A stretch of 63,824 nt of DNA, filler included, from Reclinomonas americana ATCC 50394 (Eukaryota), in assembly GCA_048213135.1 (NCBI GenBank). It is 5 parts of 5 records of this genome, joined end to end, with 100 filler letters (N's around TTAATTAATTAA, not from the genome) between each part and the next. Parts side by side here need not be neighbours in the genome. Positions count along the whole stretch, not along the records: positions 1 to 18,180 come from PS015430.1; positions 18,281 to 47,033 come from PS015431.1; positions 47,134 to 51,992 come from PS015434.1; positions 52,093 to 58,677 come from PS015435.1; 1 more part is not named here. One strand, 5' to 3'. Both the position numbers and the translations under genes were made by a program. Positions within the stretch are counted from its first letter, which is position 1, and each line of letters opens with the position of its first letter. Below are positions 5,989 through 57,571 of the stretch, piece after piece. The notes beneath the pieces are model-generated. The model saw only the letters and a program-made list of their open reading frames with translations. It did not search any database and had not been told where the DNA came from.

Positions 5989-7187
5989 TCATCTCACGGT
6001 GAAACGGAGTTGCAGGGCAACGTGGTCGGTGATGCCGGCGCCGGCACACACGAGATCCCAGTCAAATTGTACAGCATTTTCCAAATCCGCATTCAGTGAG
6101 TCCTCGCCACGCACGAGCTCTGCGTGCACGGTCACGAAGTCACGAATGAGCCACTTCACCGACACAGAGACACAGTGTGTGTGATTGAGCAAGATCGCCA
6201 CTCAACTGTGCCCGTGCACTTCCTCGTCCAACACAATGTAGTCCAGTCGACGGCCACAGGGCACCTTGCCGTCCTCTGCGTGCACACACACACGCACATA
6301 CACAAACCGATAAGTACGAGTCTGACACACAAGTTCACACTTTTGTCACTTGCCAGTGACTCACCACTGGTCTCAATAAATTGCTCTCGCTTCGCCTTGG
6401 ACATGATCAGGCTGCGGAAGAGCGCCGCTGGGGTAGTGAAGCCGTCGCCCCACACCGAACCCACATTGGTGCCGAGCACCCAAGCTGGTGAGAACAGAGT
6501 GAGAACTCCTTCACCTCCCACCTCCCACCTCCACCAGCATGAGAGCCCCACACGCAACGATAATCACGACCTGGCGCAGCGCGGCACGGGTCAATGAACT
6601 TGGCGCCGTCACGCAGCGGCTTGCGCATCGAGTCGTTGGAACTGCCACTGTCCACACCGAGCTCCACGTCCATCAGACGATGGTGAGAGTCGACTGCCAG
6701 CTGCACTGCCGTAGCCCGCGCCGTCGATGCCGCCCGCGACCGTGACGCCGAGGCCAGAGCCGTCAGCAGTGAAGGCCGCGGTGGATCCGAGGTCGGGGCC
6801 GGCGCGCTACCACCACCGCCGTCCGACGTCACCGTAATGTTGATCGACGACATTTCCGTGCTCGTGTTCTGCTCGTCGTCGTGATCCAAGTCGCCGGTGC
6901 TGAACGGTTCGTCCTCCGGCGGTGGCAATTGTGGCTGCTGCTGCTGCTGCGATTGCTGCTGCGACTGCTGCTGTGGTTGCGACAGTTGCTGCTGGAAGGG
7001 CGGCATGTTCTGACCAAAAAATGGTGGTGCGCGCGCCGGACTGACGCTCGGCCGCCTCGTCAGTGACAGCTGCGGCGCCATCGTGGGGCCCGCCTGCGGC
7101 GGCGAGAACCAGAACGGGTGTGTGTACTCGGGCTCGTCCCAAATGCCGGCATTGTCAAAGTTGAGATCGCCGCACAGCGTCGACAGC
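5989..7187 (-). CDS. SMPD3: Neutral sphingomyelinase, SMPD3-like, C-terminal catalytic part
   Basis: Motifs in order: LCGDLNFDN, FIDPCR, WVLGT, GRRLDYI and AGITDHVAL. These match the EEP-superfamily/nSMase2 motifs GDFNFDN, DPCR, WAIGT, GRRIDY and GLTDH. Confidence 0.8.
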
Positions 7188-7476
7188 NNNNNNNNNNNNN
7201 NNNNNNNGACTAAAAAAAGAAAAGAAAGAGGGAAAGTGGAGTTGGGCGCTTTTTTTTTTCTAGTTGTCATTTGTATTCATTAGTCAAAAAACATGATCAT
7301 TATTCTAGCACGTCGTGCGAGTCTATCAGCACTAAACGGCAGCATACACGAGCTCCACTAAAGTCGGAGTCGTGGACGTAAGGGGGAGAGGAAAATAGGC
7401 ATTCCAACTCTCTCTCGCGAGAGCCCCCCAATCTTGAAGCAGCAGTGTGATCGTCGTCACTTGCGTCGTGTCGGCA

Positions 7477-8869: not shown

Positions 8870-11628
8870 TCATGGATGGTGCTTCTTGAGGGCCGGTGGT
8901 GCAACGTCATCCTCCTCCTCTTCCTCTTCCTCCTTTCCCTCCTCGGCATCCTCGCCGGCTGCTTCCATGCGTTCGTCGTCACCGTCGTCTTCGTCCTCCT
9001 CATCAGATGCCGCCGCACTCGTTCTGCAGACATGCAAAGTCACTACAGAGAGAGAGAGAGAGAGAGAGAAGAGCGGGGCAGTTCGGTGGGGAGTCACGCA
9101 CCTCTTGCCGAGCGCTCGCCTCTTCGGTCCCCAGTTCTCGGGATTCACCACGAATTTGACGGTGCGCGACGGACGAGCGTCGTCACGAATGGCCCAGTCG
9201 ATGCCCTCCACGCTGCACGCCCAGGGGGGAGGAGGATTTCAGGAAACACACTCACACGCACGTGTACAGGCAGACACCCATTGATTGCACGCAACGTTGG
9301 CTCCTTGGCGAGAATCAGTGCACCGGCGGAGCCGGCGCGAGGATTGGCGGAGGGATGGTGATCGCGAACCCACTTGCGAACCACATCCCACAGCACGTGC
9401 GGCGGGCAGTCAGTTTTCAGGCCCTTGTAGTTTGCGTGCGTCACCGAGCATCGGTAGCCGAGGCTCACCAGCACCGATCTGCAAGAGGCGCTCTGTCGGC
9501 AACTGCGAATGACCAGTGCTCACTCACCTCACTCTCTTTCACTCACCTGAACAGCGCAATGCGTGGCACCGTGCTCTGCACCGTGCTAAACAGGCGCGAC
9601 ACGACATAAAATAGTGGCACGTCCGGCAGCTCTTCTTGCACGGCCGTCAACCTGCAAAGGGGCAGGTGCAGTGAGGAGGTGACACAAAGAGAGACTTGAT
9701 GGAGAACGTGAGGTGACGCACAAGCCGAGCATCTTGTTCTCACTGGCGAATTCGCCGCGATTGCTCTTGACGGACTCGATGAGGCGTGCCACAAACTCCT
9801 TGTCGTGCAGCGGTCCGTTCCATATCGGACCACCCACCTACAGCGTGCGTGGAATCAGTGGACGGAGAAATCTCCCTCTGCACACAGCAGCTATCGTGTG
9901 TGTGTTGCCACGCACCAGCACATTCGAACCGGTTTCGGCACACCGCGTCGGAGCCGTAGCGTAACCGGGCCAGTACTTGATCCCCTTGCCACTCTTACCG
10001 GCAGCGGAGCGCCCGAGTGGCTGCAGAAAGTGCGAATCGCAGCCGGTGCTCTGGTACACGTAGGATAGATTGCTGTGTGGAACACAGTGTGAGGAAACGA
10101 TGGAGAGCAGCTCCCCCCTCCATCTCCCTCCATCTCCAGCACACACCACATCACATCCTTGGCTTTCGACGCCTTCTCGAAGACTCGCACAAAGATGCGC
10201 ACGTAGAAATCAATGTACAGCGACATGACGGGCACAATGTGTCGCTGGTGACGTGCGGCGTGTTGTGCGATGCACGACAACACAATGCGGACTCCCTGCA
10301 ACCACAGAATAAGCAATCGACCGCCGTGGAGACCCTTTGTGTGGTTCCACCACTCACCATCTCGTGTCCGTACGGATAGTGCAGCGGCATCGAGCCGTAC
10401 TTGTTGAAGCACGTCTCCGGATGGTTGCCGCACAGAACCGCCATGTCGGTGCACGTGACGCACAGGAGACCTGCATCGAGAGAGCGATGAGCTGAGCGAC
10501 GACTGCAACCACTCGCCCACTCACATCGCCATGCAACTCACCTCCCGATCGTACCGCCTGCACACCGGCGTCGAGGAATTGCGATGCACTGCCGTACGGA
10601 TCGAGGTCTGCCACAGGAAGCGCGCGTGAGGTTGATGATGTGCCAAAGGCACAAGCAATCGCACGTCGTCTCACCGACAATCGTGAACGGTTCGCCGGCC
10701 GTTCGCAGCTGGTGCATTACGAATCTACAAAACAAACAAAAACAGCAGTGAGTGTACAAGACGTGTGCGCTGGGAGGGGCGGAGGGAACGCAACGTGGCG
10801 TCGCCTTGGCTCGGCACAAACTGCTCCGACTCGATGCCATTGAACTGCAGCAGCATTGACGATTGAGCAAGCACAGACACACACAGGCACAGGCACAGGC
10901 ACACGCACCGCCATGTTGCTTCGAATGTTCTCCACCGCGACCGGATCGAGATCGTTGGCCATGATTTTCTCCAGGCCAGGGATCTCTTTCCAGTACCGGA
11001 TGGAGCGCAAGCCTGACGGGGCGAAAAGAGCGAGAGCATGAGCGGCTTGTCACTGAAAGAAGCACACGCGCGTGGGACGAGGCACTGACCACTGGCGGCC
11101 AGTCCCTCGAGAATGCTGAGCGGTGCGACGGGTGTAGCGAATGCCGATGCTCCTTCTGTCGGCGCAGTGAGCAACGGTGCTTCTTCGTCTTCCACTTGCT
11201 ACGACGCAACTCCGCGCAAAGTACTGCTCATGCTCGATACGCCGTGTGCGGTCAAACTCTCGAATGACGGCGATCGACAGGTCGCGATTAATGACTTGCG
11301 CTGCGCGTGCGAGAGAGGGTCAGCAAATGCAAAAGAACCACCTTTGCATGCACACACACACCTGGGTTGTAAAACACTTCCTCGTCAGAGTCGGGGTACA
11401 GAATGCGTGCTTGGCCCTCTTGCACCACGCGGAAGCCTGCAATAGGGAGCACGCATGCATCCACAAATCATTTTTGAGACACTTCTTGCTTTCCCTCTCA
11501 TTCTGCTCACCTGCAGGCACTGATGCATCGGTGAGTGTGCTTGCTGCCGCAGCAGAGACCGTGGACACAGTGGAAGATGAAGAGGATGCCATGAGGGTTC
11601 TGCGCAGCTGCAGGAGACGAAAGAGCAT
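8870..11628 (-). CDS. TRM1: tRNA (guanine26-N2)-dimethyltransferase
   Basis: Spliced motifs [77 protein letters not shown] and [11 protein letters not shown]. Confidence 0.95.
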
Positions 11629-11769
11629 CGGTGGTGCTGATTGCAGTGAGTCAGTCGGTCGCGCAGCACAGCACGTGTGGTATACTGTGTGGATGTGTGC
11701 GCACTTGCCTCTGCACGACCCTGTAGACGACGGGGAGTGAGTGGGACAGGACGCATTCATTGCTCTTTT

Positions 11770-14700
11770 CTACTCCTCCGCCGCCGCCTCGTCGTCCGCC
11801 AGCACCTTGCGTCGCTTGGTCGGCATTGCCGCGTCACCACGCACGCTGCGCTCGAGTTCCTCCAGCCCGAGACACCCCAATTCATCATCGTCATCGTCGT
11901 CACCCGCATCGTCGCCTTTCTCTTTCTCTGCATTGGCACCGCCTGTCCACTCGCATTCACCCTCGTCGCCGTCGCCGTCGCCGTCTTCGCTCTTCACCAC
12001 CGTGCCGACCCCACTGCCCGACGCACCGTCCATGTCGTCGTCCATGGCTTCGACGGTGGTTGTCGTGGTGGCGGCAGCAGTCTCCGCGACGAGTGGACTG
12101 GTCACTGTTGAGTGCACAAAGGGCAGCAGCGACGCAATCTCGTCCGAGTCGAGCAGGGCGCCACGAGAGAGCTCCGAGTCGGCCGGCTCGCGATCCTCCT
12201 CGGGGAACGTCTCATTGATACCGTCTGTGCAGCCAGGGAGTGTCAGTCAAGCGCGACGCAGTAGCAGAGGCAGCAGCAGCAGAAGACGCACCTCGTCGGA
12301 ACTCAAAGATGCGCTTCAACTCGTCCTTGCCCAACGTGGGGTTCTTGTCGACCACCACGTCGACAATGACGTTGGAGAGCTGGTTCTTGCTCATCTGGCG
12401 CTGCAGCACGCGCTCCTCCAGAGTACCGACGCAGATCAGGCGGTAGATGAACACTTCCTTTTTCTGCCCGTCGCGCCACACACGAGCCTGGTGACGACTC
12501 AGCATGTCAGCGACTGGCTCGAGGAGGGAGAGGGAACACAACAAAGAGAGAGGTCACCATGGCCTGCTGGTCGGCAGCCGGGTTCCACTCGGGGTCGTAC
12601 ATGACGAGACGATTGGCACCGATGAGGTTCAGTCCTTTTTTCGTGGCGAGATGGTGAGCAACGGAGCGATGGCGACGACGGGATTGGGAACAGTACCGAC
12701 ACCACCGGCCTTGGTCGACAGGAGGAACACGCGCTCATTCGACCACGAAGCATTGAAGCGGTCCACTGAAAACGGGGAGGGAGGCGATGAGCGCCACCAG
12801 CACACACACACATGCATGTCTCGCACCACAAGCATAAACACACCAATCTGCTGACGCTTCTCGGCCGCCGTACTGCCGTCGAGACGCACAAAGGCAAGAT
12901 TGAGCGCCTGCAGCATCGGCACCATGCCGTCGAGACTCTGCGAGAAAGCGTCAACAGAAAGACAGACAACGAGACGGGTGGATGGTGACTGAGAGACAGA
13001 CCTGCGTGCTCTGCGACACAATGACCACCTTGTCGGTGGTCTCCTCGCGAATGCGGCTCAACAGGCGCGAGAGGACCAGCATCTGCATGCAAGCACAGGT
13101 CAATACAACTGTGAACCAACGAGCTAGTAAGGACAGCCAGCAAACCTTGCCAGACAGCGAGTAGTCGCCACACAACACGGCACCGTCGGCCAACTGCGCT
13201 TGCAGGTACTCGGGGGCAAACTTGGCGCGCACGCCATCCCACAACTCGTGATCCCACACCTGCTCAATGTCGCCATCGCCCTCCAGCGTGGCCATTTTCT
13301 TTTCTGCACACGACAGCACTCATGAGAAAGCGAAGGAGAGACAGAAATGACGTCCGCTGACTACGACGAACCGGCGGCCTTCAAGATGAGGTCGGGATGC
13401 GACAGCAGCTTGCGCAGTGCTTGAATGTACAAAAAGGCGGCATTCTGCAGAACAGAGACGCAGTCAGTGTAAGGAATGAACGCAGCAGTAGCAGAGCAGC
13501 ACGTGCCTTGTCTTGGCCTTGCGCAGAGCCTCCGCCGCGAGCCGAGATCAGTCGGTTCACAAAGCGTTGCGAGACGAGGTGGGCGTAAATCTCCTCCTGC
13601 AGTGGCGACATGCGCACAAACAGCACCAACTCGGCTGCACGGGCATTGAGGATGAGTGTCACGAGACGCAGTGATGGCGACAACAAAGACAAACCCTTGG
13701 GTGGCAGATGTTTCTGCAAAATGTCGGCCGTGCGACGAAGAAGAAACATTTGCGTGAGACGCATCAGCTCCTGACCACGAGAGGCACCGAGCGCCTTTTC
13801 GGCTGGTGTCGCTGACGGCTCGCGGGAGCGCGTAATGGGTTCACCGAAAATCTTGTTGAAGGTCTTGTCGTCGGCGAGCGAACCTGTACATGTGGAATAC
13901 ACCATCAGCCACACGTACGCGGCGCACGACTGTGAACGGGACTGACCGGGATTGACAAACGAGACGCAGGCGTAGAACTCGGTGAGGTTGTTCTGGATCG
14001 GCGTGCCGGTGAGAATGATGCGACGTGGCGTACGCATTGCGTTGAGGCTCTTGAACGTGGCCACCTGTGTGTGGAGTCAGGCAGTGACACACAAAAAGTG
14101 GAGAGGGCATGGACGTGCGCACCGTGTGGTTCTTCAGCCGATGGCCCTCGTCGCACACCAGCAGGTCGCACGGACATTCGGCGAGCAGCGCTCCCTGCAC
14201 TCGCCACGCGGTGAGATGCAAGACGAGGCAAGGGGAAGAGAGGGAGGGAAGAGAGGCTGGTACGCAACGTGAATACGAAAGTGCTCGTACGAGATGAGCA
14301 GGATGGGCTGAAAGCCGACACGAAAGTCGTTGATCTTTTGCTCCACCACCGCCTTGTTGGTGCCGCCGGAGCACACAATGGTCTTCAGGCGCGACGAGGT
14401 CAGCCACTTGCGAATCTCCTTCTCCCAGTTGTTCACCAGCGACGCCGGCGTCACCACAATTCCTTTTTGCACCAGTGGGCGACCCTGCAGCAACGCGTTG
14501 TGAGCGGTGACAGACAAGGCGGGCGGCGGAGACAAGCACACACCTCCGGCCCATGGTTCGTCAGTGCCCACAGCAGCGAAATGGTCTGCAGGGTCTTGCC
14601 GAGACCCATGCGGTCGGCAAGAATGGCACCGTAGCCGCCAGTGCTGCACAAGTAAAACAATAAAGGAAAGTGAGTGGCCCGCATGCAGTCATCTTGCCGG

Positions 14701-17689: not shown

Positions 17690-18110
17690 ATGAGTCGCGC
17701 CGGCTTATTCAACTTGACCGAGGTGCACACGGGAGGAGGCATGGCCTCGGCAGTGGCTGCTGCCTCCGCCGCTGCTGCTGCCTCCGCCTCCGCACCACAA
17801 GCACACCATCCACTGCAGTTTGGAGTTTCGTGAACACCGTGAGAGACGCATGCCAGTGACGATTCGATCAAAGTGACCTGACTTTTTGTGCTGTGCTGAA
17901 CAGGCGCTGAGACCGACTGTGCGGCCACACTTCAACGTGGTCTCGGAGCAACATCTGTTTCGCATGGCGCGGCAAGTGGGAGCGCAAAAGGTGGTGTATG
18001 GAGCGGGATTGAAACAGCAGCAGCAGCCGCAGCAGCGACCGAACTCGCAGCAAGAGTCGCGGAAGCGATCGCACTCGGTCGATGTGTTGCGCTCCATCAG
18101 ACCCGATCAG
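17690..18110 (+). CDS. 5' part of a hypothetical protein, truncated at a contig end
   Basis: MSRAGLFNLTEV...LQFG | intron | ALRPTVRPHFNVV...IRPDQ | donor GTACGG, then the spacer gap. Confidence 0.5.
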
Positions 18111-18224
18111 GTACGGCACTCACACGTACGCAGTCGGCGTAAGTGAGGGCAGAACACGGGAGTGACTTATGGAGGGGGGTNNNNNNNNNNNNNNNNNNNN
18201 NNNNNNNNNNNNNNNNNNNNNNNN

Positions 18225-18236
18225 TTAATTAATTAA
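18225..18236. other. Artificial assembly spacer TTAATTAATTAA within a 100-nt N gap
   Basis: The identical 12-mer (stops in all six frames) is flanked by 44 N on each side and recurs four times. Confidence 0.95.
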
Positions 18237-18380
18237 NNNNNNNNNNNNNNNNNNNNNNNNNNNNNNNNNNNNNNNNNNNNGTCGCGCAAGAGACTCTCTG
18301 AGAGAGTGAGAGAGAAGAATGTGTGAGCAATGATTGAATGTGTGTGTGTGTGATCGTGTCTATATCGTGTGTCTGATTAC

Positions 18381-18793: not shown

Positions 18794-19852
18794 ATGCGAC
18801 TTGTCACTGCTGTGTTGCTACTGTTGGCGATGTTGTGCCTGTGCGTTGGCACTGCATCGGCGTTTGATTGCGGTTGCTGGGCGAATCGAAGGGATCGAGT
18901 TGCGTTCTTCTCCTCCCCCCCGCCCCACACACACACTCTCTCACACTCACACACCACTGCTGCTGCTATACACGTGCTGTTGCTGTTCGTTGCTGCTGCG
19001 AGAGAAAGTGATGACTGATTGCGAGTGGTTTTTCCCGCGCGCGCTACACAGTCGATCAAGGGCATAATGTGCGCCACCGAGGGCTTCTTTCCCGGCTCGA
19101 TTGAGGGGTGGCAGCTGGAGAAGCGCTACTTTACTGTCAGCTGCCTCAAGTGCTCGTGGGAGAAGTGTGCGATGAAGGAGGAGCCGCCGATGTTGCTGTT
19201 GGAGGAGGAGGAGCAGGTGGAGGTGCCGCCGCCGCCGCCGCCGCCGCCGCTGCAGGCGGAGCAGCCGGTGGGCGATGAGTATCTGAAGCCGTGCTGCTGC
19301 TGGGCCAAGCCCGAGTACTACTGGACAGGCAGCATTCGATGCGCAGGTGAGATGGCAAGAGAAAGAGAGGTGGTCGGGAAGGTGGTGACTGACGGCGAGT
19401 GCAGCCTTCAACCCCATGGCTGTGTCGTCGTGCCCCGGCACCGATCTCGGACAGCGACTGATGGGCGCGTGGAAGGGTGAGTGGCGATGGAAGCGCAGCT
19501 GGGGAACTGCTTGCTGACTTCTTTCTCTCGGTGCGTGCGAGCAGTCAACAGCTACTTCCAGTTACGTGCCTGCTGTTTTTTCCCCTTGCTCCTCTTCCCT
19601 GCTTTCTTTTTTTGCTCACCCCACTCTGCCGCACAGGGAGTTCCGTGCAACGCCGTGCCACGCAACCGATTGTGTCTTTGGTCCTCACGCTCTTCGCTCC
19701 CGCACAGGTGCTTCTTCATCACTAGCGACGACTTGCTGGCGCCCACATTCAGCGAGGAATTCCACCCGGCGGCCACGGCAGCGGCCGTGGAGCGCATGAC
19801 GCCACCTGCCACGACACCAGCAATGGCGGCACCATTGCAGGTTCAACAATAG
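18794..19852 (+). CDS. Secreted cysteine-rich protein
   Basis: Signal-peptide-like MRLVTAVLLLLAMLCLCVGTASA, two CxCWA modules separated by a Glu/Pro linker, and several GT-AG introns. Confidence 0.65.
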
Positions 19853-41000: not shown

Positions 41001-44000
41001 GAGGCGTCGGTGCAGTATGTGCGTGTGGCCCATGGCGACCGCAAGCTGGGCGAGAACCCGGATCTTACTCTTGGCGAGGCCGACCTGCTGGAGGCCGCTC
41101 AGCTCGACGCAGTTGCGTAGCCACATTGAGTGTTTCTTGTTGTTTGTCGCACGACTCAACATGGCTTCCAATCTGCACAGACCCTGGAGCAGCCAACACG
41201 CGCGAAATCGAAGCGCAGTGACCTGTTTGGTCAAAAGTCGCACGACGTTGGAGAGCGGCGTGGTGCCATGGCCGCCGCGCAGGCTGCGTTCGTCAACTAC
41301 TTTGACAACGACGACGACGACACTACCGATCAGATTGTGCCTCCGTCCATGCCCAAGTTTACACCTGGCAACCCATACCACTTCCGTGTGCGCTCCAGGA
41401 AGCGCCGCTCAAAGGTTTCAGGCAACTCGGTACGTGTGTGCCTGCGCCATGCTTGTCTGCGTCCCCAGTTTCGTGTTGGTGACGTACATTTTTCCCCTCT
41501 TCTTTTTTGCAGTATCCACTGGATCCGCAGTTCAAGGTCGTGCTGCTCGGTGAGTGTGTGTTCATGTACACTCCACCCCGTGCCGTGGTGCTCACTCACA
41601 TCTCGCGCCACAGAGACGGAGATGAGCGCGACCTTTGTCGATTTCTGGGGCTTTGTCACGGTGCTGCAGCGCTTCTCCAACCAGAGCAGCTTGTCGGCAG
41701 CCTTCCAGTATGTGTTCCCGAAGCTGCGCCCGAGCATGACTCTCTGCACCTACTCGATGTTCCTCAACAATGTCGAGCACCAGGTGAGTGTCTCCTTCGT
41801 GTTGCTGCTTGCCTGCCTGCGCACCGCGTTGCTGCTCACCCTTTCGTCTCGCAGTGCACGGTGCAAAAGCGCCCGCAGCTGTTCGAGGAGTTCGACAATG
41901 AGGGCGAGAACAACGAACTCGCGGCACTCATCAGTGCCAGTGACGAGGAGGTGTTCCTGATGGACGTGGGCCGCATGGATCCCAACGACGAGCTGATCAT
42001 CAAGGTCACGTACGCCATTGAGGCGCAGTACGACGCCGCGTCTCGGTCTCTGATGGCTGCGATTCCTCTGGGACCCCTGCCCGACTCTCACCGGTTTGTT
42101 TGTGCACAAGACGAACCGCATTCACATTTTGTCCACTCACACGCACACAGTGGCACTCCTGGTCGCGAGTTGTTCGACCTGACGTGGAACATGTCGCCAA
42201 CCATTCTCGACGTCCAGTCGCCGTCGCACACCCTGATGCTGAAGCAGACGGAGCATTCGGTGCGTGTGTGTCGCTTCCCTGTTATGGTGCGGAGCATGGA
42301 CTGAACCCGCCGCCGTGTTTCCTTTTTTTGTGTGTGCAGGCCACTGCCATCGCTGTAGCCGGCGATGCGCCGCAGGCGTACGCCGTCGTCAACCTGTATG
42401 TGCGCGACATGCCGTTCCCGCTCTGCACTGTCTTCAAGCACCCGAGCATCCAAGCACGCGACGGCTCCTCGCACTGCCTGGGCATTGCGCTTGTGCCGCC
42501 GAGCGACATTGCCCCGTCCGACATCAACACCGAGGTGGTCTTCATTGTCGACTGCAGTTGCGTCGGCACGCTGATGGGTGTTGGCGATTCATTCACGCAC
42601 GCACGCACTCACTTGCCATCTTCACCACACGCAGGTGGCTCGATGGAGGGCTCGCGTATTGCGGCCGCCCGTATGGCTCTGATGCTGTTTATTCAAAGTC
42701 TCGCCGAAGGCGTCTCTTTCACGATTGTCAAGTGCGTCGGCTGTCGGTGCACAGAGTCTCGTGTGTGTGGTGCTGACTATATTTGTGGCGGCTGGCAGGT
42801 TCGGATCAACGCACGAATTCCTGTGGCCGGAGACGCGACCCAACACCGAGATCACCAACGAAGAGGCGCGCCAGTTCTGCATGCAGCTCAATGCTGACAT
42901 GCAGGGCACGCACCTCGGCCCGGTGTTGGAGGAGATTCATCGCATGCCGGCTGTGGAGGGCAAGAGTCGCCAGGTGTTTGTGTTGACCGACGGACGTGTG
43001 AAGCACAAGCCGGGCTGCCTCGAACTTGGTGCGTGTGTGTGTGTCTGTCTGTCTGTCTGTGCTCGAGCGCCTCCTCTCCATGCTGCCAGTCGACTCACTG
43101 TACCACACTCGCATGCAGTTCGAGCCATGTCCACGACCACTCGTGTGTTTGCTGTGGGTATCGGAGACGAGGTCGACACGCACTTGGTGGTGGAGATGGC
43201 GCGTCTCGGCAATGGCCAGCACGCCTTTGTGGAAATCGACGAGGATGTGGATGTGTTGTCGGAGGTCGTCGTGCAGCAACTCACGGGTGCGTCACTGGGT
43301 TTGGTGTCACTGCCAAGATTGTTTGCCTCACTCACTCACACACACAGCTGCCCATGTGCCTTGCCTCATTGGTACGCGACTGGAGTTCAACTCGCAGCGT
43401 GTGCAACCGCTGTACGAGTATGTACCACCACTGTTTGTCAACTCGCCCACGATCATGTACGCCCACGCACCGGCGCTGTCGGAGCCCCTGTCCTTGGTGT
43501 GCTCGTACACCACAGGCAGTTGCGTACTTGTAATTCTCACACGTACTTCTTCCTCTGTCGTGTCGGTGCTGACTGAATGCACACAGCTCTGGAGCGTAAG
43601 AGCAGTCGTACAGAGGTCAGCTTCCGCGATCCACCTGTTGCCGACTTTACGCACAAGTTGGCCGCCGCACAGCGGACTCGCGATCTCGAGTCTCGCGATG
43701 TGTTTCGTGACCGCTCATTTCCAGTCCCTTTTGTGTCTCCTGTCCACTCATGCCTTTTCATGTTTCTGCGTGTGTGCAGGCCGCGAGAAAAGATCTTCAA
43801 CTTGGCGTTCATGTTTGGCGTTCCCTCGCCGTACACGTGCCTCGTGGTGACCGACATGTCTCCGCAAGCTGGTTTGTGTCACGAGACGAAAATCGCCCCA
43901 GTCACTCACCCTCATCAACTAACGCAAAATGTTGTCGCGCAGCTTCACCGCCTGCCACATACGCCGTGGTACTCAAGTCGCTCATCGAGACCGACAAGAA

Positions 44001-44367
44001 GCCGCGCCGCAACATTATTGTGCGACCAAAGGACGGCTCACCGGTACGTCGGCATGCATTGCCAGCCTGAACAGGGAGAGCTTTCTAATTTTGTTTGTGA
44101 CAGAGTGGTTCACAATCGGCCCGGCGATCCATGTCTGCTATCGGTTCCACACCTCGCGTCGTTTCGTCAAGTGTTGCGCTGTGTTCATGTGTCTTCTCCG
44201 ACTGGGTGTTGACGTCTTGCTTGCAGGTCCGTGGACGCGCCACGAGCGTGGCCGACTCGGCTGAAGGATCGCCGTCGGCGGCGGCGGATGGCACCAGCCT
44301 CATCTCGCCGGCCGGCTCGCGCTCTTCGACGCCATTCAATGGCGTGGACGACGGTTCCGATTCGGCA
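35020..44367 (+). CDS. Giant coiled-coil + tandem ubiquitin-like + VIT + VWA (VWA5A-like) protein; start in gap
   Basis: Heptad-rich exons 35020-38813; UBL-like exons 38877-41111; VIT-like region about 41614-42260; VWA with MIDAS FIVDCSGSM, GT, VFVLTDG and RVFAVGIG. Junctions are frame-consistent GT-AG. Confidence 0.8.
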
Positions 44368-45531: not shown

Positions 45532-46563
45532 ATGCCACGGAGCGAGAGTCCACCCGCACATCGCCCCTCGCGACGCCGATCGCGTTCCCGGTCGCCCTCG
45601 CCACGTCGTCGACGTGACGATGACGGCCACGGCCGCGGCCCTCCGCAACATCGCGACTACTCTCCCGACCGCAAGCGGCCTCGTTTCGAGGACGATGGCC
45701 GGCGACCACCTCCACAACGAGACGACGATGATCGACGCGGTGGAGGCGACAGAGGCGACAGAGGAGGTAGGGGAGGAGGAGGACGAGGAGGCAGAGGCAG
45801 AGGCGGGGGCGGACGAGGAAGAGGCGGTCGTCGTCGCACCGAGGACGCTGATGATTCTGCATTCACCTGGGGCAATGCCGAGTTGCGCGCGCACGCACAC
45901 TCGCACTCTCTGCCTCTCACACTCTGTCTCACACACACGCGCACACGCATGCACGCGCGTACGCAGGGTGCTGGCAGAGGAGGAGCGACAAAAAGAAGAA
46001 GACGAAGAGGCGCGAAAAAATCGAGAAAAGCCCAACTTTGAGCGGTCAGGCAAGCTGGTGGAGAACGACGCGACACTGACAGTGGCGGGTGAGGTGCTCA
46101 AGTGGCACGAGCCTCCAGAAGCGCGCATTCCCGACACCAAGTGGCGTCTGTATGTCTTCAAGGGCGAAGATGAAGTCGGCGGTCTGTGCACGACGCGCGC
46201 TTTCTGCATGCGTGCGTGTGTGCGCTCATCATTGTGCGTGCAGAGCCATACAAGCTGCACCGGATGCCAGCGGTGATGTTTGGCCGCGACCGCAAGATTG
46301 TCGACATTCCCACCGACCATCCCTCCTGCAGCAAGCAGCACGCCGTACTCTGCTTCCGCATGCACGAGGAGGTGTCGTTTGACGGCAAGGACGTGCAGCG
46401 CATCATCCGTCCGTACCTCATCGACCTGGAGAGCACCAATGGCACCTACATCAACGGCGACCGCCTGGAAGCGGCGCGGTATTACGAGCTCAAGAGCACC
46501 GATGCGCTCAAGTTTGGACACAGCACGCGCGAGTACGTCTTGCTGCGCGAGGACGAGGACTGA
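45532..46563 (+). CDS. SNIP1: FHA-domain RES-complex splicing factor SNIP1/Pml1/DDL
   Basis: RS/RGG N-terminus, then EKPNFERSGKL, EPPEARIP..KWRLYVFKG, FGRDRKIVDIPTDHPSCSKQHAV, PYLIDLESTNGT and FGHSTREYVLL. Confidence 0.95.
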
Positions 46564-46978: not shown

Positions 46979-47077
46979 GTGCGCACTCTTCTCCTCTCTG
47001 CCTGTGTAGATTTTGTTGTGGTGGTGGTTGTTGNNNNNNNNNNNNNNNNNNNNNNNNNNNNNNNNNNNNNNNNNNNN

Positions 47078-47089
47078 TTAATTAATTAA
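47078..47089. other. Artificial assembly spacer TTAATTAATTAA
   Basis: Same 12-mer in a 100-nt gap. Confidence 0.95.
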
Positions 47090-47244
47090 NNNNNNNNNNN
47101 NNNNNNNNNNNNNNNNNNNNNNNNNNNNNNNNNCCCCCCTCCTCCTTATCCCCATCCTGTTCAATTACACAACACCATTAAAGAAGCAACGTTAACTTCA
47201 ACGACCGACGGAGTCCATGTCCCCCGATCGGAGATTTGAACATC

Positions 47245-48206: not shown

Positions 48207-50149
48207 ATGTTGAGTGTGTGGAGACATGGTCGTCGCTGGTCGAGCATGTGGTCTTCCATACGCAGTGCAAGTCCTTTCCCACTGGAGCCACACGCACCGG
48301 GCAGTGTGTTTGTGGAGCGCGGAATGCGACATGTGGTGCCGTATTTCGACGACTTGTCGATGCATGCAAAGCGTGAGAGACAACTCCACTCGCGCACTAC
48401 GAGACGCTGCAGATCGCTGACTTGCGTGTGTGTCTCACTGTAGAGCGACACTATGGGCGATCGTTGATCGATGTGTTGCAGAATGAGTGGCGAGTTGAGT
48501 GCATTGTTGATGGTGATCAGTCATTGCGTTCTGATCGTCGGCCTCGCAGACCTTTGATCGGCAGTGGTATACCGCGTCGCTGGCTAACGGGCGCATCCGA
48601 CTGAACGGTCGACTGGCCAGAGGAGGCATGCTCGTGCACCTTGCATAGCGCACTCTCTTGATGTCTCGCTTTCTCATCGAGAGCGCATGCGGCAGACGAG
48701 GTGCTCGGCAACCGCGACGTCATCTCTCAGTTTCTGCATCGCCACGAATCGCCCGTGTTGGCCGTGGAGCCGACGATCATTCGCGTGTACGAATCAGAGC
48801 TGGTCGCCGTCGACAAACCATCGTCGTGGCCTGTGCATCCGTGCGCCGGCAGGTGAGCCCTCTCCTCGCGAGTCAGCAGTGATGTTCTTGCTCATATATG
48901 GTTCGAGGTGCCAGATTTCATCGCAACACTGTCGTCGACTTTATGGCTCGTGTGCTGCAGAGGAACACATATCGTGAGTGTGTTTTGTGACTGTCGCTGC
49001 ATGTGCCGACTGCTGACGGTGATGCAGCTGTGCACCGATTGGATCGGTTGACCTCGGGACTCCTCCTGCTGGCCACCAACGTGACCGCTGCGCGGCGAAT
49101 ATCCGAGTTGGGTGCTTGCTCCCCTGCCTTTTCCTACTGTGCTGTGTTTTGCGAGGATGGAGTGGCTGATGATTTTGGAGTTGCTGTGCAGTTGGTTCGT
49201 CAAGAAGCGCGTACAAAAGTGGTACCTGGCACGAGCGGCAGGCGAGCTGCAGAGCACGTGCGTCGTCAACCTTGTGGCTCGGTGTGCGCGTGTTGATTGC
49301 TCACCGATGACACGTCGCAGTGCGGAATTCGAGATCACCACCGGCCTCGAGTGCATAGACGCGCGTGCCGGAGTGTGGCAGTGCATTTCGGCGGCAGGCC
49401 TCGACGAGTCGCGCACGGCGACGACACGATTTCGCCGTCTCTATTTCGATCACTCCGCGAATGAGACCGTCGTCCTGTGTTGCGTTTGTCGTGCGTGCGA
49501 TGCGAGGGGACAGCTTGGTGGGTGCTGAAACTCGTCGACTGTCATGCACAGGCATGCCAATCACCGGACGAACCCATCAAGTTGCGTTGCGTTGCAAGTT
49601 GTCTTCGCCGTCGGCATGCCAACTCACTCGGGCTGAACGGGGCGACAGATCCGGCTCCACCTGCAACACATCGGCCATCCCCTGGTCGGCGACCCGTGGT
49701 ACGGAGTCGGGCAGACAGCCGCCGATCACGCCATGACAGAAGATGACCGACGAGTCGCCACACGTGCGTTCCCCGGGCCGGGAGTGACCCTGCCACTCCT
49801 CTCCGCTGGCGACAACGACAGCGACAAAGCGCAACAGCAACCGAGCTTGGAGCCACCGTTCCATTTGCAACTGGACTCGAGCGACAGCAAGCGGCAGGGA
49901 GAGGCGATATCTCGCATCTTCCGTCGACTGGTGGCCGAGAATTTTGATCCCCACTGCCCCGTGTGCCACGCCAGCAGTTGCAGCAGCGGGGTACGCGACC
50001 AGTGGATGACGCGACTGGCCGAGCAGCAGCACCACATCTGTCTGCACGCAATGCGTGTATTGCTGCCCGACGGGCGCGTCATCTCCACCAAACTGCCGAC
50101 ATGGGTGGACAGAAGCCAGTTGTCGCCTGCCGACAGCCAATTCCTCTAG
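48207..50149 (+). CDS. RluA-family RNA pseudouridine synthase (RPUSD2/Pus9-like)
   Basis: HVVPY, S4-like NGRIRLNG, HRHE, VDKPSSWPVHP, VHRLDRLTSG (catalytic Asp), [26 protein letters not shown] and ICLHA. The Arg/Ser-rich N-terminus resembles a mitochondrial presequence. Confidence 0.93.
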
Positions 50150-51034: not shown

Positions 51035-51961
51035 ATGGGGCGTCAACGTTGCGTGTCTCAGCTCCTGTGCATGCGTGTGTCTCAGTGTGAGAGGGGGAGA
51101 GTGTGTTTGTGTGTGTGCGCGTGCTGAGGGAGTGTGTGCGTCTGTCACCGAGACATGTCGACTTTCCCGCCTCTTCCTCACACACTCGCATGCGCAGGGC
51201 GACAAGTTCAGCTTCCATCAGCACCACCACCACCACAAGCAGTTGTGCATTACACTCCCGACACACACACACACTCACACCAGTCGCTCACTTGCATGTG
51301 CGTGTGTGTGCGCAGGAGGAAGAGGCAGAAGCGGACGACGCAGCCTATGTCGACGACAACGACGATGATGTGGTGACTGGCGAGGACGATGAGCAGCAGG
51401 AGGGAGATGATGAGGACGACATTGATGATGATGCAGCTGCTCCAGTCCACGATGCATACAACGACGATGATGACGACGATGATGATGATGATGATGAGTC
51501 TGACATGTCAGAGTCGGAAGTGCGTGCACTGCGCATGCATCTCGGGCGTCCGTGGAAGCTCGGCCACAGGGGAGATGATGATGATGATGATTATGGGGAG
51601 GGGGAGGAGGAGGATGATGACGGCGACGATGGGTTGAGAGCGGCGGTGCATGCGCATCGGTTTCCGGATGCCGAGAGCTCGGCCACGGCGCAGGTGATGG
51701 CGTGGGAGATGCAGGAGCAGGAGGCGAGAGTGGCGCGGCATGCGCAGTGGGCGGCGTACATTTGTGCTGTAGATATGGTGTGTTGTTGGGAGAAAGGGGG
51801 AGAAAGGAGGAGACAACTGTGTGGTCTAAACTGTGCGTGTGCAGGTGCTGTGCTTCCGGTTGTTCCTGAAAAAGCCACACATCCGCACGGCCTTTGGTCT
51901 CCTGTTCTCCTCCAGTGGACTCATTGGATCGCTGTCGCAGAAGAAGGGCATGGTGCTCATG
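51035..51961 (+). CDS. 5' part of an acidic hypothetical protein with probable TM segments, truncated
   Basis: MGRQ|RRQVQLPSAPPPPQA|EEEAEADD...(poly-Asp)...YICAVDM|VLCFRLFLKK...; the exons splice in frame. Confidence 0.5.
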
Positions 51962-52036
51962 GTGCGTGTGTGCTCGTACAGTGTGTGTGTTTNNNNNNNN
52001 NNNNNNNNNNNNNNNNNNNNNNNNNNNNNNNNNNNN

Positions 52037-52048
52037 TTAATTAATTAA
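52037..52048. other. Artificial assembly spacer TTAATTAATTAA
   Basis: Same 12-mer in a 100-nt gap. Confidence 0.95.
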
Positions 52049-52092
52049 NNNNNNNNNNNNNNNNNNNNNNNNNNNNNNNNNNNNNNNNNNNN

Positions 52093-55000
52093 GTGCGCGA
52101 GAGTGCATTGATGGGCGAGACACGCTCATTCTTCCGTCTGACTCGCAACAGAGGAGCCTACGTGTCCTTCGTTGTCGGCTTCGGCGGCGTCGGCGGAGGA
52201 TGTGGTGCGGGCCGAGTGGCTGCTCGGCCGCAGTATCCTGCAATGCTTGCTTGCTGCGCATCAGCACCAGCTGCGGTCGATCGCGTTTCCGCTGCTGGGC
52301 ACGACTTTTCCCGTGTCTCGGGCGGCTGTTGCGTCGCTTTGTTTCTCGCGCACATTCCGCCTGTGGCTCACTTTCTGCACGTGTGCAGGCCGTCTTCTTT
52401 GAGACTGTACTGCGTTTCCTCAGCGATCACAGCTTCACTCCCGTGGCGTGCATCCGCCTGGTTGACACGCGTCGCGACGTTGTGCATGTCATGTGCCAAC
52501 AGGTTTGTGTGAAAAAATGTGTCTTGTGAAATCTCGAATGCGCTTCTCACCCGTGCACGCGAGATTCAGTTTGACCGCCGTGTTGGCTCGTCGTTCGACG
52601 CTCGCTCCTCAGGCCTCTCCTCCACCGGCGCCTCGTCGACCATTTCACTCTCCTCAGTGCCCGTATTTGATTCGTCGACCGGTGGCCTGCTGGCTCACTC
52701 AAGTGGCGGCAGCGGCAGCGCCAGCAGTAGTGTTGGTGGTGGCCTCGGTGGCAGCGCTAGTGGCAGCGGTGGGGGTACAGCAAGTGGAAACGGCGGCTCA
52801 TCACATCGTCGTCTGCGCGGTGCGGCGCCGGTGAATCCCGACATGGCGCTCTCGCTGAGTGGTCGTGTGGGCCAGCAGCGTGCAGAGGTGGAGAAGCTGG
52901 CGCGCACTTGTCGTGTGCTCAGTCGATGGCAGCGAGCCGGCTCCGTCTCCGAGGCGCACCAGTCGGTGGTGGACGCGCAGTTCGATGTGGAAGACAAGGA
53001 ATCCATGCTGTTGTCGGCGGTCGCCGCGCTTCGTCGTGAACTGCTGCAGCAACCACCGCACGAGGAGGGTCTCACGCCGGCGCTGTCGGAGCTCGGGAAG
53101 CAGCGAACGTTGGCGGCGGTGGCTCTCGAACAATCGCTGCAGGGATTGTTGGATGCGCTGGAGTCGGAGCGCCGCGATACGACGAGCGAGCTCGACGCAT
53201 TGCAGCGTGTGTGGTCCGACATTGTGTCGCGCCACTCCACGCCCATTCTCTTCAACGGCGACATTTCGGACTCGTCAGACACAAGTGTGGCCTCCAGTCC
53301 CACTCACGCTCTCTCTGATGTCGGTGAGTGAGCTCGCCTCACTCACTGGGTTTCTTTATCATTCGGCACCACTCACACCACACATGAATGCAGAGACACG
53401 ACGGGTGACTCGCGATGGCATTCGGTGGATGCATGCTCATGCTGACGCGATTCGACTCGCCGCCGAACGCACACAGCGCGTGTGTGCCGAGGGTGGCGAG
53501 CTGTCGGAGTGGTTGGAGGCGCTGGAGGACGAAGATGGTGTGTTGTCGCATGCGTTGACGGCGGGAGTAGCACTGTGGTCCGAGCATGGTGCGCGGTTAC
53601 GCGGAGCCGTGCAGTGTGGCATCGATGAGGTGCGTTTGTTTGTGGTGCGGGACTACACCGATTGACGACTGCATGTGGCTGACTTGGGTTTCTCGCAACA
53701 GATGCATTGGCGCCTTGATCGTATTGTCACCGCGGAGCGAGTGGCCAAGGAGAAGAGATTACAGGCGAGCAAGCAAGCGGCGCGACAGCACCGCATTCGA
53801 CTGGAGGGCGCACTGCACGAATTGAAGCGCCTGGAGTCTAAGGCCGCACCGGTTCGCTTACTCACAGTATGAGAGAGGTGGTGTGGGAAACTCATGAAGC
53901 TGGCTGGTGTGCAGGTGGCCTCGGTGGTGTGTGCCGATGGTGAGCCGCTGACTCCGCTGTTGGATGTGGTCGCCGGTGACGACGACGAGCACTTCCCCGA
54001 TGCACGACTGCTTCGACTCGACGCTGTCAAGGTGAAGTGATGCACTCATGCACGCACAGAGGTGACGAGTCGAGAAATTGATTGCTGAAACCACACGCGC
54101 ACCGTGCAGCAACTGGGCTACATGGTGAAGCTGGTGGCCGCAATGCGCACTATGGATGAAATGTTCCCGTACGTGTACGCCGTGCGTTATCCCGACATTG
54201 CAGTTGGAGAGGTGCGATGCGGTGTGATGTCGAGTGCGTGCATGCGTGCGTGAGTCGCACTCACACAGCACGTGGTGTCGTAGGTGCAATTGAGTCCGCC
54301 AGTGACCATGTTCTACGAGGCACTGGTGGCGGAGAGCCGGTCTACCAACGGCGATGTCTCACATCTGGTGGACGAGTTCACTGTGTACATTGCGGCGTCG
54401 CGGCTCGGTGCCGGCATCAAGGTGGAGGTCGACGACTTCTGGGAGGAACTGCGCGCAGCCGTGTTGTACAATACGAATCGCGATTGGCTGCATAGGGCGC
54501 CAAGCACCGCTGTGTCGGTACGCGTGACATGTCGCCGACATGCTGTGTGTCGGCAGCGTATCTTACTTGAATTATGTGCAGGGAACTGTGTTGTGGGATT
54601 CACTCACCCAGTGGCTGTCGCTGGGACACCCGATCCGCATCCTGTCTCCATCGTTCCACGCCGTCGATAGCAAGTTCCTCGACATGCTGCTGACTGCACG
54701 CACACAATCGTCGTCGTCTGCCGTCACTTCCACCGGCAAACTTCTTGCGGTTTCTGTTCTCGGAACCAGCGGCAGTGGCAAGTTGAGTGCTCGGCCATCC
54801 ATTAGTTTTCCCAGCTCGACTCACTCAGCGTGCAACATGCAGGTCGACTCTTCTCAGGGAGCTCTTCCGCTGCGATTTCGAGGTGTCAGACGTGTCACGC
54901 AAGCGCGGCGTCATGCTGACACACAAGCCCGTCACTGAAGTTGCTCGCGTGCGTGATGTGGTTGTGATGGACACAGATGGCCTCGAGTCGACTACCGACC

Positions 55001-57571
55001 AGGAGCGGTTAGTTCTTTCTGTCTTTTTTGTTGCTTGGCAGATCCACTTATACTGTGTTTGTATTCGACGAACAGGTGGAACATGCAACGACTGGCGGTC
55101 ATGATGCTGGCCGTGTCCAACGTGGTGTTGCTGAATGTGAGCAGTGCGCGTTTGGAGGAAGATGCTGAGACACTGTGCGAAGCCTGTATGGTGGCACTCA
55201 AGCAGGTGAGTGGGGGGAAGAGAGAGAGGGAGGGAGAGAGAAAGTCTCGTTTGCTGACGCAGTGCGTGCAGAGTGTCGTGCGCATTGTTCCACCACGCTT
55301 CTTCTTCGTGGTCCGTGATGCCAGTGAACTCGCCGACTGGACTGCCAGTATCCAGCAGACGTTGAGAAGAGCGGCTGAGCGGCATCACATCGATCTGGAA
55401 GATCTGCCATTCCTCACCAGTGACGATAGTGTGGTCCACTTGCCGTCGGTGCGTGGCCATGATGCTTCTTCGTTGTTACTCACTGTGAATGATTTCACTC
55501 ATGGTGGTCTCTTGTCGCGGGCACACAGCTGCTGGATTTGGACTCGACCGCTTGCAGTCTGCTCGAGGATTTGCGGACGACCATCTTCTCGTATGCGAGC
55601 TACACTGGTGAGTTCACACGCTGGTGAACAACCAACCCTCACTGATCGCGTGCTCATATCTATGTGCGCAGCATGGACTGGTCTCTATCGCGATACACTA
55701 GTCTGGTGATTCCAATCTCTTTGTGCCCGAATCACTTCAACAACAACTCACTTTGTGCATTGCTACAGGTCCGATCAACGAGACCGCACGTGGTCGCCGG
55801 TGCTCGCCGCTCTGGGTCGGCCTCTGCGCGACGAAGAAGCGCATGATTCGCCGTCGCCCGACGCTTCCTCTGGAAGCGAGTTGGCGAGACTGCGTGAACG
55901 AGCCGGTGTGATTCAAGAAATGTTGGATAAGCAGTCGTCGCTCGTGTCGGCGCTCTCTAACGTGCGCTCGCTTGCTCGCTCCTTGCCGTGTGCTCTACGA
56001 GTCGACGCACTCACTGCTTTCCACCTCCATGCTTGTGCAGTTTATCGAGACGCACGAGGCTCGCTTGTATGCCATTCGAGACGGCATCGTGGAGACGAGT
56101 CGCTTGCGGGAGGCATTCGACACGCTGCGAGTTTCGTGTGCCACCATCGTCGACGCTGTTTGTTTTCGTCGCTGATGTAGTGTCGCAGAGTCTCTTGCCG
56201 AGCCACCGCGAGCTGCAGCATGCTCTTGCGCTGTGCGAAGTCAGCTTGACTGACGACAGCGCGCTGCCGAGCGACGATCGCAATGTGCTGAACGTGCACC
56301 GCAGCTTGCCGCTGGGCCAGCTCATTCTCACCGCCATGAGTGCCAACAATGTGTTTGAGTTGCGTACGCAACGGGCGCCTCTGGTGTTGCTGTCACCTCA
56401 CTCACGGTGCACGCTGTACAGGGCCACCGAAGCTTATGCGGCGTGCGGCCTCGACACTGTCCGCGGTACGTTCCGTCAATACGAGGAGACTTCGACGGCG
56501 TTTGCTTCCGCCCTGACCGTGCGAGGTGCCCGGCTGACGCCAAGTGAGTTTCTTCATTGCATGCTGCGCGCTGTGCTCGGACTCATCACAGTTGACGCCA
56601 CCGCAGTCCTCCTGCTACCGATTCAGCGCATGCAACAGGTGAGACTGGCGATCGAATGCCATGCTGCTCGTTTGTTTCGTGTCCTGACGTGCGCCGCCGC
56701 AGTACCACTTGTTGCTGGAGCGTGCTATCCGACACACGCCGTCTCTGTTCCGCACATACATGCCGATCCGCTCGCCAGACGGCACGTACGGACTCAGTGA
56801 CAGAATGGATGAAGTGCCGGAGATTGAGCGTGAGAGGCAAGCCTATCACTTTGTGCTGCAAAGCGTGAAGGAATTGGAGCTGCGCATGGTAGCGCCGGAG
56901 CTGCAAGCATCGCTGGCCTTGCCGCCGTCGCGCGGTGATTCTCGTCAGCTTGTGCGTCACTCTCCGCTAAAGTTGTCGACACCGGCACGACTCTTCCGAC
57001 ACGGCGACACGACGCCTGTGGAGCTGGCTCTCTTTTCCGATTGTTGCGTGTTCTGCAAGTCCGCCGGCGATTCGTGCATGCTGCTCACGGTGTGGAACGC
57101 AGATTTCGTGTTCCGGCGCCCTGTCAGTGCTCGGAAACGGCAGGGTCGAGAGACAGCCACAGTGTGGCCACTGTCGCAAGTCGTATCGTGTGCAGAAGCC
57201 GGTGAACCACCAGCTGGTGAGTTCCGCGCTGCATGCGCGATGTTGCTGTGCGTGCTCATTCGGTGCTGTGCATGCAGGCCTGAAAGACGCCCGGCTCGGC
57301 GGCTTCTGGTTTGCCGTGCAATGCGGCGTGCCAAAGAGCAAGACGTGCTTGTTTTGGTGCCACGATGAGCGAGAGGTAACTTACTCAAGTGCCTCCTCTC
57401 TCTCTGTCTCTTCCTCGAGCCTTACGTTGTATTTCCACCCCTCCGCGGCAGGCCAAAGAGTGGGTAAACGACGTCAATCGGTTACTGCGTGCGCAGCGCC
57501 GCTTGTCTGACACCTCCCTGAACGGCTTCTCCATCTCACCCGATCAACGACGAGAGAGAAACAGCGGGCCG
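52093..57571 (+). CDS. Multidomain protein: Macro (partial) - helical region - GB1/RHD3/VLIG-type GTPase - DH - PH
   Basis: Macro: LRSIAFPLLGT..FP..AA..FFETVLRFL. GTPase: VSVLGTSGSGKSTLL, VMDTDGL and FFVVRD. DH: LLLPIQRMQQYHLLLERAIRHTP. PH: LALFSDCCVFCK...EAKEWVNDV. Both ends lie in gaps. Confidence 0.8.

Follow-up and report, generated by a model that had tools for sequence, protein, structure and literature searches.

A second class of intron donors with an extra T in Reclinomonas americana, and a one-base shift in U1 register as its possible basis

In a stretch of 63,824 nucleotides (nt) from Reclinomonas americana ATCC 50394 (assembly GCA_048213135.1; five joined records, together called the window) we find two classes of 5' splice sites, or donors. 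Next to the ordinary class, which mostly follows an exon ending in G, an abundant second class reads GTTGCGT or a close variant: it requires T at intron position +3, carries the usual downstream G and T one base further from the cut, and never follows an exon ending in G. Several independent junctions support a cut directly before the first GT. We take these to be real GT-AG introns with a second donor type, and consider it about an even bet (probability roughly 0.5) that the 5' end of the U1 small nuclear RNA (snRNA) binds both classes across the same heptamer.

A donor class with T at +3 that never follows G

Introns were predicted with a Viterbi gene finder of our own. A first pass was made without any signal weights, and the commonest donor heptamer was already GTTGCGT. 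For the rerun, donor and acceptor weights were learnt from intronic bases only, so that exon bases cannot bias the result at position -1. The finder predicted 174 introns, 82 of which remain after filtering (length of 45-140 nt, acceptor YAG, branch motif YTVAY located 6-48 nt upstream of the intron end). Donors with G at +5 are called ordinary, which includes the types g/GTTCGG and g/GTTTGG (here and below the slash marks the cut and the preceding letters are exonic); donors with T at +3, no G at +5 and G at +6 form the shifted or extra-T class.

An earlier note on this DNA had listed about 35 donors in which G+5/T+6 lies one base further in, and had stated that none of them follows G. Both observations hold: each of the 35 coordinates marks the start of GTT[GTA][CAT]G[TCG], and the base before it is A (21 sites), C (8) or T (6), never G. 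We found four further members (27028 and 57043 on the plus strand, 9295 and 6558 on the minus strand), which brings the class to 39 sites, whose -1 bases are 22 A, 10 C and 7 T, with no G. The finder used 26 of the 35 listed donors and skipped nine, of which 48494, 49581 and 54782 were placed by hand from the sequence, while 17825, 18899, 30188, 44173, 51242 and 6206 were checked at the motif level only. Owing to the unusual donors it also missed a 29-nt micro-exon (49552-49580) and an exon encoding a P-loop, both discussed below.

The filtered set consists of 56 ordinary introns, 18 extra-T introns (18/82, roughly a quarter) and 8 that belong to neither class. G is present at -1 in 42 of the ordinary donors (75%, as the earlier note had proposed with "mostly"), in 3 of the 8 unclassified ones and in none of the 18 (Fisher p=6.5e-9 against the ordinary class); among the 82 introns, T+3/G+6 donors are confined to non-G exon ends. 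Of the 37 introns whose upstream exon lacks a final G, 18 are extra-T and 14 are ordinary (mostly GTGCGT), which makes the extra-T form an option at such exon ends and not a necessity. Only one of the 174 predicted introns seems to break the rule: g/GTTTCGCC at 29479, a 38-nt prediction that is itself doubtful.

Counts of the motif point in the same direction. Counting both strands, GTTGCGT has 34 copies; 100 dinucleotide-preserving shuffles give 14.89±4.14, and none of them reaches 34. The degenerate form HGTTKMGY has 95 copies against 64.4±7.3. The control GT[ACG]GCGT (GTVGCGT) is not enriched (37 copies against 40.2±6.6); we therefore rejected the option that any base is allowed at +3, the enrichment being limited to T. 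Within three gene blocks, 24 copies of GTTGCGT are located on the gene strand against 4 antisense. Predicted donors account for 21 of the 34 copies, and the remaining 13 correspond to the chance level. Only two copies are preceded by G (1849 on the plus strand, 19660 on the minus strand), and both are antisense to predicted genes.

All 39 members are given below; "listed" refers to the earlier note, "filtered" to the set of 82 introns, and "finder" to a predicted intron.

17825..17831, plus: a/GTTTCGT; listed; motif only, not used by finder
18899..18905, plus: a/GTTGCGT; listed; motif only, not used by finder
19561..19567, plus: a/GTTACGT; listed; filtered, intron to 19636
20722..20728, plus: c/GTTGCGT; listed; finder, acceptor choice (410 nt) doubtful
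22047..22053, plus: a/GTTGCGC; listed; filtered, intron to 22114
22432..22438, plus: t/GTTGCGT; listed; filtered, intron to 22513
23110..23116, plus: a/GTTGCGC; listed; filtered, intron to 23186
24991..24997, plus: t/GTTGCGT; listed; finder, intron to 25055
25567..25573, plus: a/GTTGCGC; listed; finder, intron to 25649
26369..26375, plus: c/GTTGCGT; listed; filtered, intron to 26440
27028..27034, plus: a/GTTGCGC; newly found; filtered, intron to 27103
29097..29103, plus: a/GTTGTGT; listed; finder, intron to 29159
30188..30194, plus: a/GTTTCGT; listed; motif only, not used by finder
39247..39253, plus: c/GTTGCGT; listed; filtered; paralogous to c/GTGAGT at 40014, both after 70-nt repeat exons
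39622..39628, plus: c/GTTGCGT; listed; finder; paralogous to c/GTGCGT at 40870, both after 67-nt repeat exons
39867..39873, plus: c/GTTTCGT; listed; filtered; paralogous to 41112, both after 167-nt repeat exons
41112..41118, plus: a/GTTGCGT; listed; finder, intron to 41180
42557..42563, plus: a/GTTGCGT; listed; filtered, intron to 42634; splits VWA motif D-C-S/G-S-M
43519..43525, plus: a/GTTGCGT; listed; filtered, intron to 43586
43702..43708, plus: t/GTTTCGT; listed; filtered, intron to 43779
44173..44179, plus: t/GTTGCGC; listed; motif only, not used by finder
45882..45888, plus: a/GTTGCGC; listed; finder, intron to 45977
48494..48500, plus: a/GTTGAGT; listed; RluA-family gene, read from sequence, intron to 48549
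49479..49485, plus: t/GTTGCGT; listed; before micro-exon 49552-49580, read from sequence; finder acceptor wrong and distant
49581..49587, plus: a/GTTGCGT; listed; first of two overlapping copies, intron to 49648, RluD alignment
51048..51054, plus: c/GTTGCGT; listed; finder, 268-nt intron doubtful
51242..51248, plus: a/GTTGTGC; listed; motif only, not used by finder
52328..52334, plus: t/GTTGCGT; listed; filtered, intron to 52388
54782..54788, plus: a/GTTGAGT; listed; intron to 54842, splits Walker A lysine codon AA/G
56131..56137, plus: a/GTTTCGT; listed; filtered, intron to 56188
56359..56365, plus: a/GTTGCGT; listed; filtered, intron to 56421; half of a 14-nt palindrome
57043..57049, plus: t/GTTGCGT; newly found; first finder run only
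6200..6206, minus: a/GTTGAGT; listed; motif only, not used by finder
6552..6558, minus: c/GTTGCGT; newly found; filtered, intron to 6485
9289..9295, minus: c/GTTGCGT; newly found; finder, intron to 9213; after last TRM-domain exon
10788..10794, minus: c/GTTGCGT; listed; TRM1-like gene; filtered, intron to 10725
11204..11210, minus: a/GTTGCGT; listed; TRM1-like gene; 55-nt intron to 11156 by reading, finder took a later acceptor
14262..14268, minus: c/GTTGCGT; listed; Rad54B-like gene; filtered; anchor spacing 19 residues
14706..14712, minus: a/GTTGCGG; listed; Rad54B-like gene; filtered; anchor spacing 27 residues

At 56359-56372 (plus strand) the donor GTTGCGT is directly followed by its reverse complement ACGCAAC, a perfect palindrome that could fold back on the splice site. 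As for the ordinary donors of the filtered set (n=56), A is almost absent from +3 (G 41, T 11, C 3, A 1), and GTAAGT has only 7 occurrences in the window on both strands together.

Position of the cut

Three donors had been described as pinned by invariant protein motifs, and all three motifs are reconstituted by a cut before GTT. The first junction belongs to an RluA-family gene, whose exons were read from the sequence and whose downstream exon was aligned to Escherichia coli RluD. The micro-exon at 49552-49580 (plus strand) encodes ...M-P-I-T-G-R-T-H-Q, and the next exon, from 49649, starts with I-R-L-H-L and aligns from its first residue to RluD 162-181. Two overlapping copies of GTTGCGT, 5 nt apart (49581 and 49586, within 49581-49592), are present at the start of the intron between them, and the RluD alignment indicates that the first copy is used. 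Sliding both ends of this intron by one base would change the conserved I of H-Q-I-R to V. The second copy could be an out-of-frame alternative donor. Elsewhere in this gene, the micro-exon has extra-T donors on both flanks (49479 and 49581), and a donor at 49107-49114 (plus strand), a/GTTGGGTG, placed by hand from the frame, fits both classes (G at +5 as well as G at +6 with T at +7).

At 54782 the split codon AA/G supplies the Walker A lysine in G-T-S-G-S-G-K-S-T-L-L, and the first residue of the following exon falls at position 9 of the RHD3_GTPase profile (a weak match, E-value 0.029). At 42557 the split codon A/GT yields the VWA metal-site motif D-C-S-G-S-M; here residue 2 of the following exon falls at position 12 of Pfam VWA_3, and the numbering continues gap-free across the next, ordinary intron (c-a-a/GTGCGT). 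The gene at 54582-55007 (plus strand), possibly an RHD3/Sey1-like GTPase given the same weak Pfam match, is also an example of mis-annotation, the finder having skipped its P-loop exon in favour of a GTTCCT donor.

The Rad54B-like gene offers a test by spacing, for which we took those of 150 fetched homologues that contain both anchor motifs. The anchors on either side of 14268 are 19 residues apart, the mode of the homologues (58 of 107; 20 residues in 23), and those on either side of 14712 are 27 residues apart, again the most frequent value (38 of 78, with 28 residues in 11). The modal spacing is likewise kept across two ordinary introns of the same gene that served as controls. The TRM1 junction at 10794 gives 34 residues against 30 profile positions, and placement to one residue is beyond what Pfam coordinates provide. 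Given these results we rejected a GC-AG cut at GTT/GC: one extra residue would break G-S-G-K-S-T, D-C-S-G-S-M and T-H-Q-I-R, and would move both Rad54B spacings from the mode to the less frequent values of 20 and 28 residues.

Finally, intron positions are kept between the units of a ubiquitin-like tandem-repeat gene while the donor classes differ. After the same exon end, c/GTTGCGT at 39622 corresponds to c/GTGCGT at 40870, and c/GTTGCGT at 39247 to c/GTGAGT at 40014; the exon length of 70 nt is seen twice (39177-39246 and 39944-40013). The gene extends over 38877-41336 (plus strand), and its exon lengths of 170, 67 and 167 nt recur in that order in the second unit. The protein motifs, the modal spacing in the Rad54B-like gene and the equal lengths of paralogous exons together support, at the level of the sequence, a cut directly before the first GT.

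Homologues close enough for intron comparison were scarce. Nothing useful came from PDB searches with the exons that follow 42557 and 54782 or with the one preceding 49479, and word-index protein searches gave one match of 39%, otherwise WD40 matches of 25-41% or nothing. A full HMMER search with the Rad54B exon returned homologues of at most 55% identity (those with a name are from Mantamonas, Protostelium, Nonionella and a fern), and a metagenome scan with the same exon a single intron-less, apparently prokaryotic SNF2 gene. Neither the homologue nor the metagenome search with this exon yielded orthologous introns for comparison.

Register of the signal and competing explanations

To compare registers, the 39 class members were scored with the position weights of the 56 ordinary donors. 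Both intron and exon composition are described far better by a one-base shift than by the same register: over intron positions +4 to +9 the log-likelihood is -193.7 with the weights slid by one base against -545.4 in the same register, and over exon positions -3 to -1 it is -152.2 against -214.4 (background -157.6). G at +6 is found in 39/39 (as the class definition demands) and U at +7 in 31/39; at -2 the ordinary class has G in 7/56. The earlier proposal that a single heptamer, G[GT]TNNG[TC], fits both classes stands as far as the common block is concerned, whereas its last position is broken by 14712 (GTTGCGG). The extra-T class is also tighter than the ordinary one, with more information per position and more fixed positions, and C at +5 in 34/39 exceeds the C at +4 of ordinary donors (23/56, p=5e-6).

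Further inward the two classes show no visible difference in branch motif, acceptor or length (medians of 73.5 and 67.5 nt), and the extra-T introns share no common sequence beyond +8. The first exon base after the intron is G in 8/18 extra-T against 13/56 ordinary introns (p=0.13), which hints weakly that a G lacking at the exon end is often found on the other side of the junction. An origin by sliding of introns over one base was set aside, as it needs at least two coordinated changes per intron and the downstream G is only weakly raised. Introner-like mobile introns were rejected too: all-against-all blastn of the 82 introns found just 13 short low-complexity pairs. Nor are these U12-type introns, since their donors read GTTGCGT, and the donors of that minor type are of the RTATCCTT type.

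The explanation we favour places the same U1 5' end on both classes. The class consensus is H/GUUGCGU(G), and its block U-G-C-G-U-(G) sits a base deeper in the intron than that of G/GUGCGU(G). The first G would then pair with C9, the U before GCG with A7, and the following G/U with C4/A3, so that in this +1-shifted register the intronic G+1 would occupy the place usual for the exonic G-1; A at -1 (22/39) would pair with U10. Catalysis would still cut before the first GU, later U6 pairing would have to accommodate one extra nucleotide, and the class would serve exon ends that cannot supply a G at -1.

Duplex energies were computed with the textbook U1 5' end as printed in Tan et al. 2016, which may differ from the organism's own. 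Ordinary donors reach a mean of -6.3 kcal/mol in the optimal duplex, in the canonical register in 46/56 cases. For the 18 filtered extra-T sites the slid register dominates in 12, and G+1, which pairs with C9 in 6, never pairs with C8. Explicit structures for the consensus extra-T site give -2.2 kcal/mol for the shifted pairing against +4.8 for the canonical and +3.9 for a bulged one; at two further consensus sites the shifted values are -2.4 and -4.8, the canonical ones +2.6 and +2.4, and the bulged ones +1.4 and -2.6. In all four class sites computed (4/4) the shifted pairing is the best of the three. Insertion of a T into ordinary donors in silico weakens binding in 53/56.

Several observations weigh against this explanation. 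The optimal duplexes of the 18 extra-T sites are very weak (mean of -1.45 kcal/mol). Deleting the T in silico from the 39 sites improves binding in 30, leaves it equal in 7 and worsens it in only 2 (mean of -2.90 after deletion against -1.81 kcal/mol before), so that retention of the T is not accounted for by U1 duplex stability alone. The near-fixed G+4/C+5 is unlike what the stretch of two pseudouridines in U1 would select, and zero G at -1 in 39 sites is below even the expectation of the slid model (P=0.0045). Moreover, the energies ignore pseudouridine, proteins such as U1C and every later step, and all counts are derived from a single 64-kb window and our own gene models. Overall, the geometry is supported, and both the explanation by U1 and the earlier note's interpretation as a whole are partly supported; what we infer is the identity of the RNA or protein that recognises the block and the register it uses. 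As to why the extra U is kept, either the pairing of C9 with G weighs more in vivo, or a later step prefers it, or a component is modified.

A modified component is the core of the alternative that survives best, although we regard it as doubtful. Here GUUGCGU would be a dedicated signal rather than a weakly bound shifted site, read directly by lineage-specific machinery. The reader could be an additional form of U1 (whose base facing U+2 can, for instance, pair with U), U1 with an altered 5' end, or a modified U6, U1C or Prp8. In one such form, tentatively held at the same level, a fixed signal G-(G/U)-U-G-C-G-U would be read in one register and cut before the first GU, with the dedicated component being a second U1 changed opposite signal position 2 or an altered U1C, U6 or Prp8. 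The near-zero pairing with textbook U1 and its improvement upon T deletion would fit, as would the larger number of fixed positions and the strong preference for G+4/C+5. Among 64 U1 variants screened in silico (positions 5, 6 and 8), none makes both classes optimal, and a single changed 5' end that explains both was thus not found among them; the best variant favours 15/39 extra-T and 52/56 ordinary sites over their swapped forms. Variants with A8 favour up to 36/39 extra-T sites (30/39 for the other A8 variant printed) and 29 to 34 of the 56 ordinary ones, and two U1 species thus fit better than one. Against this, the screen is crude, and no Rfam family matched within the window at the gathering score, hence no snRNA gene is seen there. 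As far as is known, the 5' end of U1 hardly varies among eukaryotes, which speaks against a lineage-specific form.

It is unlikely that U1 pairs canonically with G+1 and U+2 while one U of +2/+3 bulges out. The paralogous introns that share an exon end and differ by one T (c/GTTGCGT against c/GTGCGT) are what such a bulge predicts, and so is the tolerance of only T at +3, as a U beside a U gives a degenerate bulge. On the other hand, G at -1 would help a bulged duplex and yet never occurs (0/39), which makes this reading less likely; in addition the bulged pairing is computed to be worse than the shifted one in 4/4 sites, and G+1 pairs with C8 in 0/18 optimal duplexes. Tan et al. 2016 (PMC4856993) list a human bulge +2/+3 register (Roca et al. 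2012) with 68 predicted and 54 curated sites. These sites, too, are GUU-type and have the consensus one base out of place; they keep the canonical pairing at -1 and +1, whereas in our class -1 is never G.

Quite unlikely, in our view, is compensation without any change of register, in which non-G exon ends need a stronger intronic signal (through U6, U5 or proteins) and GUUGCGU is simply the strong variant of this lineage. The idea draws on the two major 5' splice-site classes AG//GU and //GURAG and on the general anticorrelation of exon-end and intronic strength in plants and animals, both taken from Parker et al. 2022 (bioRxiv 10.1101/2022.04.05.487178); a strong anticorrelation of G at -1 with the intronic motif is seen here too. 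However, both of those classes have G+5, and the second class in the window is not GURAG-like: an added U puts G/U at +6/+7 instead of +5/+6, where the standard pairing to the U6 ACA would be misplaced. The 14 ordinary donors after non-G exon ends also show that a normal strong GTGCGT is available.

An artefact of gene modelling, with introns spliced elsewhere or not at all and a heptamer that is merely compositional or coding, is very improbable: the finder does learn its own donor weights and failed to pick 9 of the 35 listed sites, but the shuffles and the GTVGCGT control argue against composition, the strand bias, motif-anchored junctions and Rad54B spacing argue against misplaced introns, and GTTGCGT led the weight-free pass.

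Gene content and significance

The window has about 59% G+C outside N, and its introns are dense and short (mostly 57-90 nt), with a CTSAC-like branch motif and a CAG acceptor. Exon translations match Pfam families on the minus strand (SNF2 in the Rad54B-like gene, TRM1, WD40 and the start of the RNA polymerase largest subunit) and on the plus strand (VIT/VWA, FHA, GAF, Macro, adenylate kinase and the RluA-family pseudouridine synthase); the RHD3-like GTPase, also on the plus strand, is below Pfam's cut-off. Open frames are too common in this GC-rich DNA to assign acceptors by frame. A very long coiled-coil gene at 35047-38219 (plus strand) has two exons of about 1.2 kb amid otherwise short exons, and its antisense frames are open too, which misleads checks based on open reading frames.

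In total 7,026 N are present in 23 runs. Four blocks of 100 bases (18181-18280, 47034-47133, 51993-52092 and 58678-58777) each consist of 44 N, a 12-base spacer and 44 N, and the spacer at 58722-58733 reads TTAATTAATTAA, a six-frame stop linker of the contig-joining type. For this reason the N runs look like assembly gaps rather than masking.

Of the systems described before, the one closest to our favoured reading is the shifted (+1) U1 register that Roca & Krainer 2009 described for atypical 5' splice sites in humans (after Tan et al. 2016, PMC4856993). There too the cut falls at a GU, the consensus G/U is displaced inward by one base, the intronic G+1 pairs where the exonic G-1 normally does, and the published test site lacks an exon-end G. 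The differences are in composition and scale: the block here is G-C-G and not A-A-G, T at +3 is obligatory, and against the approximately 1.5% of 201,541 human sites that the validated noncanonical registers make up together (same source), the class comprises 18/82 filtered introns and about half (18/37) of those after a non-G exon end. That the later steps are flexible as well is indicated by the human STAT3 tandem donor, two GU sites 3 nt apart with a non-canonical U6 register (Kramarek et al. 2024, PMC11162779), where the position of U1 need not fix the cut; this case is one human exon and not a genome-wide class. Full-text literature searches, which cover subscription journals poorly, found no description of a donor class of the GTTGCGT/GUUGCG type. 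Registers known as rare would thus be abundant and rule-bound here, which is interesting but unproven.

It is still debated what sets the exact cut made by the spliceosome, with the site of U1 pairing on one side and the later U6, U5 and Prp8 steps on the other. If the recognition block is displaced by one base in a quarter of a genome's introns and obeys so simple a rule (no preceding G, U at +3 without exception), this would be a natural experiment on that question. For annotation the consequence is practical: splice-site models that have learnt GTNNGT would give these donors low scores and get the splicing of many genes in this organism wrong. Should a dedicated component read the class, about a quarter of the introns, and half of those after non-G exon ends, would depend on it, and a variant U1 or an altered protein behind the class would be a rare instance of splicing machinery altered where it is most conserved.

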